Of a stretch of DNA of 64,000 bases, positions 27,901-30,246 are shown piece by piece (position 1 is the stretch's first letter; each line of letters starts with the position of its first letter). Below the pieces are notes generated by a model, which did not search any database, was not told where the DNA came from, and saw nothing but the letters and a program-made list of their open reading frames with translations. Position numbers and translations under genes: made by a program. The stretch covers positions 155,746,001 through 155,810,000 of the forward strand of contig NC_086097.1 in NCBI RefSeq assembly GCF_963921235.1, given 5' to 3'. This stretch comes from Mobula hypostoma (lineage: Eukaryota).

Positions 27901-28514
27901 CAGCAAGGTTTTAGGAATTTAGCAGAGATAGATCTGCTTCTGACAGCTCAGTTTTTCTTGGTTAGCAAATAGGCTTTTTGATTTTTTAAACATGAAAGAT
28001 CCTGCAGATGCTTGAAATCCAGAGCAACACATACAAAATGCTGGAGAAATTCTGTCAATGTTTCAGACAAAGACCCCTCATCAGGATTGAGAAAGGGTGG
28101 GAAGAAGCCAGAATAAGGTGGGGAGAGAACACTCCATATCTTTTCAATATAAGCATGAAAAAACAAGTGGCACAATGATAAACTCTAACATAATACTTCC
28201 TTCAAAATTGATCAACCAAACGTTTACCAATATTACTGAAAACCCAAGACTCACAGGTGTTGTTGTTTCAAGAGTAAATAATGAGTGGATGGAGATGAAT
28301 GTCTTTCCACTGACTGAATAAAAACTAACTCCGCAGGAAATGGCATAAAAACCAGCTTGCATATAGGAAGCGATGCTCATACAAAATGAACTGCACCTCT
28401 AGAGGCCAGAATGCTTCCTGCCTGGCATCCTTGTGATGTCAAACTTAACTACTGAATCTAATGGTTAAATAATCATTTCATTAAGTCTTTGGAAAAAGAA
28501 ACATAGTGTCAGAG

Positions 28515-29056
28515 TCAGTCAGTCAGTCAGCAGGTGCCGTCCTGAATCTGGGGATGGTGGCTATGTGCCTCCATCTTCTTCGATCTTGCAACAGCACCGA
28601 GTACAGCCTCTCCTCCAGTTTCTTCTCGTTGGCCGCCTTGGCACCACCCTCCGAACTGGAGCCTGAGGCTGTGTCGGCCACCAGCCGCGGCCGCTTCTTC
28701 GAGCTCGGCCCTTCCTTAGGTGGAGGCCTTGGGCAGGTCCAGGCACACAGTGCAGTGCCCAAGTTCATCATGTCTCTTCTAACTAAGTGTATAGCATATG
28801 ATGCATAGATATGTGGCGAGGCTTTAATCTCTTCCACGGAAGATGGCCGTTGGCTCACAAGGAGCTCATCCACCCTTTGTCAGGTCTTGCATTTTTTTAG
28901 TCCTGCTGGGTGTCCTCACACCCTCCTCACCAGACTAAGTCTGGTGGGGGAGCCAGCCCAAGTCGCCGACCACTCCACCATGGCCCCTGGCCAAGCACCG
29001 GGCACCCGCCCCCCCGCTGAATCTCTCCGAGCGTCCGGCGCCCGACCGAAAACCAC
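28515..29056 (-). mobile_element. RTE-type non-autonomous retroelement carrying host-gene cargo, inserted in BEL
   Basis: 9-bp TSD GTGTCAGAG at 28506-28514 and 29057-29065; (CTGA)4 tail; RTE-like C-terminus LVRRD...LLQDRRRWRHIA. Confidence 0.85.
28591..28755 (-). pseudogene. ZFTRAF1: Circularly permuted fragment of the N-terminal coding region of ZFTRAF1/CYHR1
   Basis: 28754-28722 encodes [11 protein letters not shown]; 28721-28591 encodes PKEGPSSKKRPRL...[11 protein letters not shown]. The vertebrate CYHR1 sequence as I recall it reads [25 protein letters not shown], so the two halves are swapped. Confidence 0.85.
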
Positions 29057-30246
29057 GTGTCAGAGACTGATCTTAAAAACAGTCTTACTGGACTGTCTTT
29101 AACTGTTCTCACTTCAAAAATGCTGGTCTTGATGACATACTTGCTTGTGGTATTTTCTAATGAGCAGTAAGGTGACATGCTGTTTACCCAGAATGACAAT
29201 TGTGCAACAAGTTATCTCAGAAGTGAGTCATGCCTTCGTAATCCACCCTTTAACTTGCAGTAGTCTCTCAGAGTCAAGAAAGGGAAAGAGTTTACTCAGT
29301 GTTCTTTGTTCTGGGGGAGATTCCTGATTTGTGATGCATTGCATTTCCTCTGCATAAATCTGTCTTTGAATAACAAGAAGGATTTTAACCATTGCCTAAT
29401 TTAGTTGCTATATGCTGAGAGGTTGTTTATAAATATGCCAACCATTGCAAAGGCTGTCTTTGGCCAATCTTGTACAGGAATTACCTCTTTTACAGTCTGC
29501 CATCTCAACTACTAAAACTGCAGCACCTAGTTCAAGCTTTGGTATGGTGAGATCTGGTTCAGCAGCAAGTTTTGCTTTGCCCAGGATGAATTCAACCTCT
29601 GTGACCTTCTGGTATGCTCAGCAGGCAATAGCTTTAGTTGACGCATCACAGGAGATGCAAACCTCTTCCTTTTGGACTGCAGATAATGGAATAAATGTGT
29701 AGATTCTTGGAATTTTCAAGCCTTTAAGATCCTGAAGAGAAAAAGCCCACTGCTTCCAATGCCATGGTTCTCGTTAGGAGGTGGGGTATCCCATCTACAA
29801 GTGACTGAGGTCAACTCTCTTAGCATGAAACATCCCTGGATACTGACCAGAGCAGCAGTTCTGAGATGGTCAAATACACCGTTGATAGTTAATAGCACGC
29901 CACAACATGAAAAGAGTTTTTCAGTATCAGTGACCTGGAATGCACTGTATAGGAGGGAGGTTCTGTTCAAGATCAAGGTTCTCTGGACCTTTGGCCACAT
30001 CTTTGGATGGGAAACATTGCATGATCGAAGTACTGCTGTATGTGATCTTATGCAGTCTGAGGTTAGACTGTACCAACATGTCTTGTGCTGCTTTCGGCAC
30101 GCTGAATTCTTCTTCTGCATTACAGAATGATTTAAGACCATCATGTACATAAAATGTCTTTTATGCTCCAGACCTGAATTTCTTCTCTCCCTTGATAGCC
30201 GTCCTCTTATGACAATAGTTGGTGAGGGACATTTATCAAATACCCA

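Follow-up and report, generated by a model that had tools for sequence, protein, structure and literature searches.

Introduction

Bov-A, RTESINE1/2 and WALLSI3 are bipartite RTE LINEs without an ORF (Kojima 2018, PMC5786205). In the available portion of that source, they are described as the 5′ part of an autonomous RTE-type LINE joined to its extreme 3′ end, with a microsatellite tail and in many copies. The element analyzed here, which lies in a 64,000-nucleotide stretch of the Mobula hypostoma genome (the window), has the same organization. It differs from Bov-A-type elements, as these are set out there, in that its deletion is filled by a permuted piece of a host coding exon, hereafter the cargo, and in having as its head a fold-back hairpin in which A>G changes are fixed.

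Related arrangements of host sequence are found in other systems. The mouse circRFWD2 circRNA pseudogenes (33 copies; Dong et al. 2016, PMC4897178) carry host exon sequence in non-colinear order and have likewise been multiplied with a retroelement; here, by contrast, a LINE derivative serves as carrier, the copies number several hundred to a thousand, and the junction falls inside one exon without coinciding with a splice junction. The eccDNA-mediated duplications (Takahashi and Innan 2020, PMC7188851) share the permuted order in the same direction, but in the sections available these were sought among segmental duplications of >1 kb outside mobile elements, whereas here a DNA intermediate is only a candidate. 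The size, GC content and 5′-exon origin of the cargo fit the ~180-bp germline eccDNA described in the accessible part of Hu et al. 2023 (PMC10581685). Chimeras formed by LINE template switching, namely U6/L1 (PMC2104539) and the tripartite WEIRD/Mg-SINE/MGL (PMC13174262), resemble the present element, as far as the excerpts of these papers go, in that a sense copy of a foreign RNA is joined to a LINE 3′ end with target duplications around the whole. In the present case, by contrast, the piece that was captured is permuted, a whole family descends from the chimera, and the reverse transcriptase would have gone back to the 5′ part of the same LINE. Neither "circular" nor "permut" occurs in the available text of PMC13174262.

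There is a precedent for each ingredient of the element, in bipartite RTE derivatives, circRNA pseudogenes, eccDNA duplications and template-switch chimeras. A search of the openly accessible literature returned no account of the family, of its combination of features, or of ADAR edits fixed in the master of a retroposon, which is not proof of novelty.

Structure and copy number of the element

The element occupies positions 28515–29056 of the window on the minus strand, and is a non-autonomous unit of ~550 bp flanked by a 9-bp target duplication, the 5′ copy of which (29057–29065, minus strand) is identical to the 9-mer beyond the tail (28506–28514, minus strand). Read in its own direction on the minus strand, it begins with the inverted left arm of a fold-back head (29029–29056), which is 5′-truncated in the window copy. 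A blastn search of the full head against 22 LINE 5′ ends, together with alignments, identifies this arm as the reverse complement of LINE 5′UTR segments b and c, its inner edge being approximate. The hairpin loop and the sense right arm follow (28953–29028, edges approximate), and consist of LINE 5′UTR segments a-b-c with ~100 nt deleted and with 12 A>G changes that are fixed family-wide. The remaining LINE 5′ part (28757–28952) extends as far as the start of the long ORF region; it has deletions of 7 bp and 10 bp relative to most LINE copies and carries the LINE's commonest letter in 189 of 194 columns. The cargo is formed by piece B (28717–28756, 40 bp), the native downstream half of a stretch of ZFTRAF1 exon 1, and piece A (28591–28716), the native upstream half, which measures 126 bp here, as against the 138 bp of the parent and of full-length copies. 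The element ends with the LINE's last ~76 bases and a (CTGA)n tail (28515–28590), a segment in which 0 of 64 columns differ between 46 family tails and the commonest letter of 27 LINE tails. The earlier note on this sequence had recognized both pieces but placed their circle-closing junction at 28722/28721 instead of 28717/28716.

The ZFTRAF1-derived stretch is a repeat, as 923 nucleotide candidates for a 165-bp stretch of it were found in the animal's own genome (3.48 Gb, 200 contigs) and a protein search of the same genome returned 1095. When the best 40 of the 923 candidates were scored, all 40 matched over nearly the full length, with 86–100% identity. In an alignment with 19 other loci, the extent common to these and the window is ~28515–29056. 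An exact 19-place junction pattern has 464 matches over many contigs, against 0 for the control, and is matched by 16 of 28 copies chosen on their left flank alone. Corrected for this fraction, the 464 matches correspond to ~800 copies, a figure that is probably low, as the 28 are the copies closest to that of the window; the family is put at about 800–1000 copies. The cargo is present in 27 of the 28 left-flank-chosen copies and in 50 of 51 distinct copies examined. One copy (L054) lacks the cargo body; it ends a few bases into B (1790–1810) and has neither A nor the tail. A repeat of 7–17 bp stands directly after the tail and again upstream in 24 of 45 rows, and is internal to the element in one of the 24.

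The permuted piece is thus a fixed part of a multi-copy element and not a private or recent insertion. The window site is an ordinary family member; the capture predates the entire family and took place elsewhere than at the window locus. A single recent event at this locus, as previously proposed, is not confirmed, given at least 464 copies. Rfam returned no ribozyme, no small-RNA head and no near-threshold match for the element. Classification as a SINE in the strict sense (a tRNA, 7SL or 5S head with a Pol III promoter) was rejected, given the absence of an Rfam match and a head made of LINE 5′UTR sequence.

The parent exon and the permutation of the cargo

On the minus strand of the window, two ZFTRAF1-like coding pieces in different frames are arranged with B ahead of A. 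A gapped pattern search found the native A-B order at a single locus of the genome (C5, 228.09 Mb; L031), where both pieces belong to a first exon that lies in a CpG island and whose reading frame is open between an ATG and the GT donor. The parent gene is identified as ZFTRAF1/CYHR1 by its exon 2, an 80-codon exon located ~91 kb downstream that is 99% identical to skate and sawfish ZFTRAF1/CYHR1. In batoid ZFTRAF1 proteins, A precedes B, and the match to them points to a batoid host. ZFTRAF1 intron 1 spans ~91 kb (C5 227999891–228091000). Protein searches with the exon-1 pieces returned nothing, as did Pfam, and Atlas gave weak RING-finger leads only. The gene assignment and the swapped order put forward in the earlier note are borne out by this genome search for the parental exon.

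In the parent, A (138 bp) and B (40 bp) are contiguous and form a unit of 178 bp (L031, 1476–1653) with 71% GC, inside the CpG island. At the A/B opening point no base has been lost or repeated, and the two pieces have neither gap nor overlap in the parent. This exact abutment implies a 178-base unit whose two ends were joined, or at least kept next to each other, and which was then opened a single time. The unit occurs in a single copy within the ~170 kb fetched from the parent gene, with no second A or B, so that a tandem duplication in the parent, the alternative raised in the earlier note, does not explain the B-A order. The cargo runs in the sense direction, lies entirely inside exon 1 and ends 4 nt ahead of the splice donor.

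The window cargo measures 166 bp and lacks 12 bp of a GGC-rich stretch in A; the full-length 178-bp unit is found in 14 of the 28 left-flank-chosen copies. The circle of 166 bp proposed earlier therefore describes the cargo in the window but not the founder unit, and the accompanying argument from nucleosome size is strengthened, as 178 bp falls in the 175–185 bp class of germline eccDNA in the available part of PMC10581685. Between the family's commonest letter and the present-day gene there are differences in 3 of 178 columns, and one of these lies 3 nt away from the closing junction. In a sample biased to close copies, divergence from the commonest letter is 2.4–3.4% at non-CpG columns and 15–16% at CpG columns. 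The count of about ten surviving CpGs was correct (10 in the window cargo), but the recent date drawn from it does not stand, since the parent unit has 20.

Copies vary in the length of the GGC-rich part of A through the 12-bp deletion and others. Many of those nearest to the window copy share the 12-bp loss, a form that may mark a subfamily. For the parent stretch, a run listing contained 14 sequencing-run rows with at least half of the words, from two organisms.

The carrier LINE and its junctions

A tail pattern that excludes the cargo had 176 matches, and of the 30 retrieved, 27 came from a different element; the others were a bare tail and 2 worn copies of the family. Five of the tail matches were extended and yielded two near-full LINE copies of ~3.2 kb with endonuclease and reverse transcriptase (L093 and L096); the domains found in the LINE are PF03372 and, in L097, PF00078. 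The 5′ part of the near-full copies matches the left flank of the family, and the genome contains 36 candidates for the LINE 5′ ORF region. The stretch of the LINE that is absent from the family, 2873–2910 bp long (~2.9 kb), lies between the 5′ part and the last ~76 bases, exactly where the cargo is placed, and capture of the cargo and internal deletion of the LINE thus coincide. The partner LINE is presumably an RTE, a label that we take from its architecture and motifs. Judged from sequence, the carrier appears to be RTE-like, and the family has the composition of a bipartite non-autonomous LINE derivative.

At the right junction the LINE reads AAAGAG/CGCAAG, without homology to the end of A, and at the left junction it reads GGGC/CCCTTG in most of 30 copies; the variant seen in 2 of the 30 would have 2 nt in common with the start of B. 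The junctions are blunt, and the CT and CTGT microhomologies proposed in the earlier note are wrong because they were derived from a guessed empty site. Likewise, the proposed empty site in an RTE coding remnant was not confirmed, as the cargo replaces the LINE interior. The closing junction is also blunt as read, with 0 nt of microhomology, and a 3-nt direct repeat is present at the start of A and 2 nt past the end of B. Pattern searches of the animal's own genome for an empty site joining the left and right flanks gave no match, because the flanks are ~2.9 kb apart in the LINE. The cargo-free members with which a comparison had been envisaged were not encountered: no two-part form without cargo was found, and the 4 matches to a pattern for a left part of the family type lacking cargo were all worn cargo-bearing copies. 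A left flank running straight into the endonuclease start motif was rejected as a candidate, with one chance match; the LINE has ~70 further codons before the motif.

Two of the 30 LINE copies, L124 and L128, have the 7-bp deletion of the family, and L128 additionally has its C>T change near the left junction; these two represent a candidate donor sublineage. Another LINE copy (L094, 2677–3191) has a 5′ inversion, as expected from twin priming.

The fold-back head and its A>G changes

Full copies begin with two LINE 5′UTR segments in reverse complement (~55 nt); beyond a short loop both segments recur in sense, and the same ~100 nt are absent from the two arms. A long hairpin is predicted for four copies, with energies of −81 to −86 kcal/mol computed without a shuffle control. 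Where the LINE has A, the family has G in 12 of 18 columns of the loop and sense arm and, within the inverted arm, in 3 of 5, a total of 15 of 23. Elsewhere in the 5′ part this change affects 0 of 55 A columns (Fisher p 1e-10), and the tail shows it at 0 of 18. None of the three cargo differences is an A>G change (28 As in the cargo). The reciprocal T>C change is found in 0 of 21 columns of the hairpin and loop (p 2e-6 for the comparison with A>G), on which ground GC-biased conversion was rejected as the cause. At 13 of the 15 edited sites the opposite arm keeps the LINE's base, the other 2 lying outside its coverage, and the A>G polarity is therefore independent of an outgroup.

The anchor motifs of the main count include some edited sites, and the samples per segment were 26, 28, 40 and 17 of 51 family copies, and 9 and 21 of 30 LINE copies. 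An anchor-free check on all 51 copies gave G at frequencies of 0.88–0.98 in a run of four edited columns and, with its cruder alignment, A>G at 10 of 19 columns. A>G changes on one strand that are limited to a duplex correspond to ADAR action, and ADAR edits become heritable only via reverse transcription of the edited RNA. The clustered, strand-specific changes in the head likely represent a fixed ADAR-type signature that stems from RNA editing. These marks show that the master passed through RNA, as does any retroposon; they neither date nor explain the capture. A pattern for an unedited head precursor gave 2 matches, both of them family copies. The left arm of L150 (~1480–1520) has A at 2 of 3 edited sites, one of them non-CpG, and may be a less edited form or the result of back-mutation.

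Origin of the permuted cargo

We favor, at about even odds, a model in which the 178-base permuted piece of ZFTRAF1 exon 1 replaced the LINE interior once, in the founder, by jumping of the LINE reverse transcriptase between templates, and was then copied to hundreds of sites. The enzyme would start at the 3′ end of the LINE RNA, depart after ~76 nt and jump to the free 3′ end of a once-cut exon-1 RNA fragment, which could be circular with a nick, or linear and folded in such a way that its ends were kept together. After copying A and then B, it would arrive at the other side of the cut and jump back to the 5′ part of the LINE RNA. With both LINE ends retained in the product, the LINE machinery would go on mobilizing the element. 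At some step the 5′ end would have folded back to form the ~55-bp hairpin, the RNA of which was likely hyper-edited by ADAR, with the edits written into the master copy. Searches for a cargo-free left part and for an unedited head provided no intermediate that orders these events.

Several observations argue for template jumping, namely that the unit has one parent locus, in native order and with exact abutment of its halves, that the capture coincides with the LINE's loss of its interior, that no cargo-free form was found, that the cargo is sense and exonic and ends 4 nt from the donor, that the junctions are free of microhomology, and that the lineage bears other marks at the level of RNA and reverse transcription, the fold-back head and the A>G cluster. 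Blunt jumps suit non-LTR reverse transcriptases. In the predicted fold of the unit, computed without a shuffle control, B pairs with A and the ends are brought together; a covalent circle may not be needed, because this pairing would hold a nicked RNA together. Double template jumps of LINEs are described in the available part of PMC2104539, and reversed junctions can arise when a reverse transcriptase crosses structured RNAs whose ends are close (Dong et al., PMC4897178). The length of 178 bp counts against template jumping, as germline eccDNA has a mononucleosome size class into which it falls, an agreement not predicted by an RNA model, and the sense orientation would be a 50% coincidence under a DNA model.

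That size is what a DNA circle would explain. A mononucleosome-sized microDNA from the CpG-island exon of ZFTRAF1 may have been opened once and ligated as filler in a LINE-deleting break, or captured in the repair of a LINE insertion, the result happening to be a mobile two-ended element; we hold this to be a serious possibility, though short of an even chance. The unit is permuted by a single opening, ~180 bp long, GC-rich (71%) and derived from a 5′ exon in a CpG island, and according to PMC10581685 the germline eccDNAs are most abundant at ~180 bp and over-represented in gene-rich regions, above all in 5′UTRs. One cut in a covalent circle gives the exact abutment for free, and permuted duplications via eccDNA are described for human in the accessible sections of PMC7188851. 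The blunt ends do not discriminate between the RNA and DNA routes, because about two-thirds of such eccDNA circles have no perfect microhomology (PMC10581685, available part). However, the DNA route requires a clean cut that trimmed neither end, together with the loss of 2.9 kb from a LINE of which full-length copies are few (the genome today has 36 candidates for the 5′ ORF region), and leaves unaccounted for both the sense orientation and the end 4 nt from the donor. The 3-nt direct repeat would give a circle of 180 bp, given later loss of two bases, at the cost of an extra 2-nt deletion common to 46 of 51 copies. The earlier note's microDNA is thus a possible source, but its precedence over template jumping is not retained. 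The wider claim, that the body of a new retroposon amplified ~thousandfold began as a nucleosome-sized DNA circle, released from a CpG-island exon and re-integrated in the germline, and that the hairpin of its master also carries inherited, reverse-transcribed ADAR edits, appears rather unlikely.

Closure at the RNA level by back-splicing, from the exon-1 donor to a cryptic AG in the same exon (180 nt) with retro-copying and loss of two junction bases, is improbable. It fits a B that stops 4 nt ahead of the donor and an A that starts with AG, and mouse circRFWD2 gave rise to 33 permuted pseudogenes flanked by LTR sequence (PMC4897178). The family junction nevertheless lacks two exon bases that splicing would retain, and the AG has no pyrimidine tract, whereas a better-looking CAG stands behind CTAAC ~25 nt upstream (judged by eye against the consensus). 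The unit starts mid-exon and ends short of the donor, so that no exact donor-acceptor back-splice is present, in agreement with the previous rejection of a plain back-spliced circRNA on the ground that the ends are not splice sites. Back-splicing of first exons is also rare. Formation without any circle, whether by tandem duplication in the parent, by capture of A and B in separate events or as an artefact of assembly, is most improbable of all and already largely refuted by the single unit copy in the parent region, by an abutment too exact to be likely with two independent captures, and by the 464 exact junction matches over many contigs against 0 for the control; no point in its support was found. 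The weights given here to template jumping, the DNA circle and back-splicing are a matter of judgement.

A sub-exonic, non-splice circular permutation is the expected trace of small circles re-entering the germline and is seldom caught; here, hundreds of copies pin the founder junctions to the base. The family illustrates that host coding sequence can form the body of an internally deleted LINE from its birth, which offers one route by which SINE-like elements acquire their unexplained middle parts, and its two-arm hairpin provides an internally controlled example of A-to-G editing fixed in a master retroposon. If the DNA-circle and editing reading were true, one 550-bp element would preserve, as a dated fossil, both the re-integration of a microDNA and RNA editing written into a vertebrate genome. 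The cargo is most likely a neutral passenger; hypothetically, ~800 dispersed sense copies of ZFTRAF1 exon sequence could affect ZFTRAF1 via small RNAs or methylation.

Genomic surroundings of individual copies

Two copies on C12 (L131 and L132) are identical over 360 printed bases including flank, and lie 100 kb apart in opposite orientation, pointing to a segmental duplication. In the window, a broken remnant of a Pao/BEL LTR retrotransposon (PF05380, E 7.7e-7) is located at 29492–29647 on the minus strand, ~440 bp upstream of the element, which may have inserted into or beside it.
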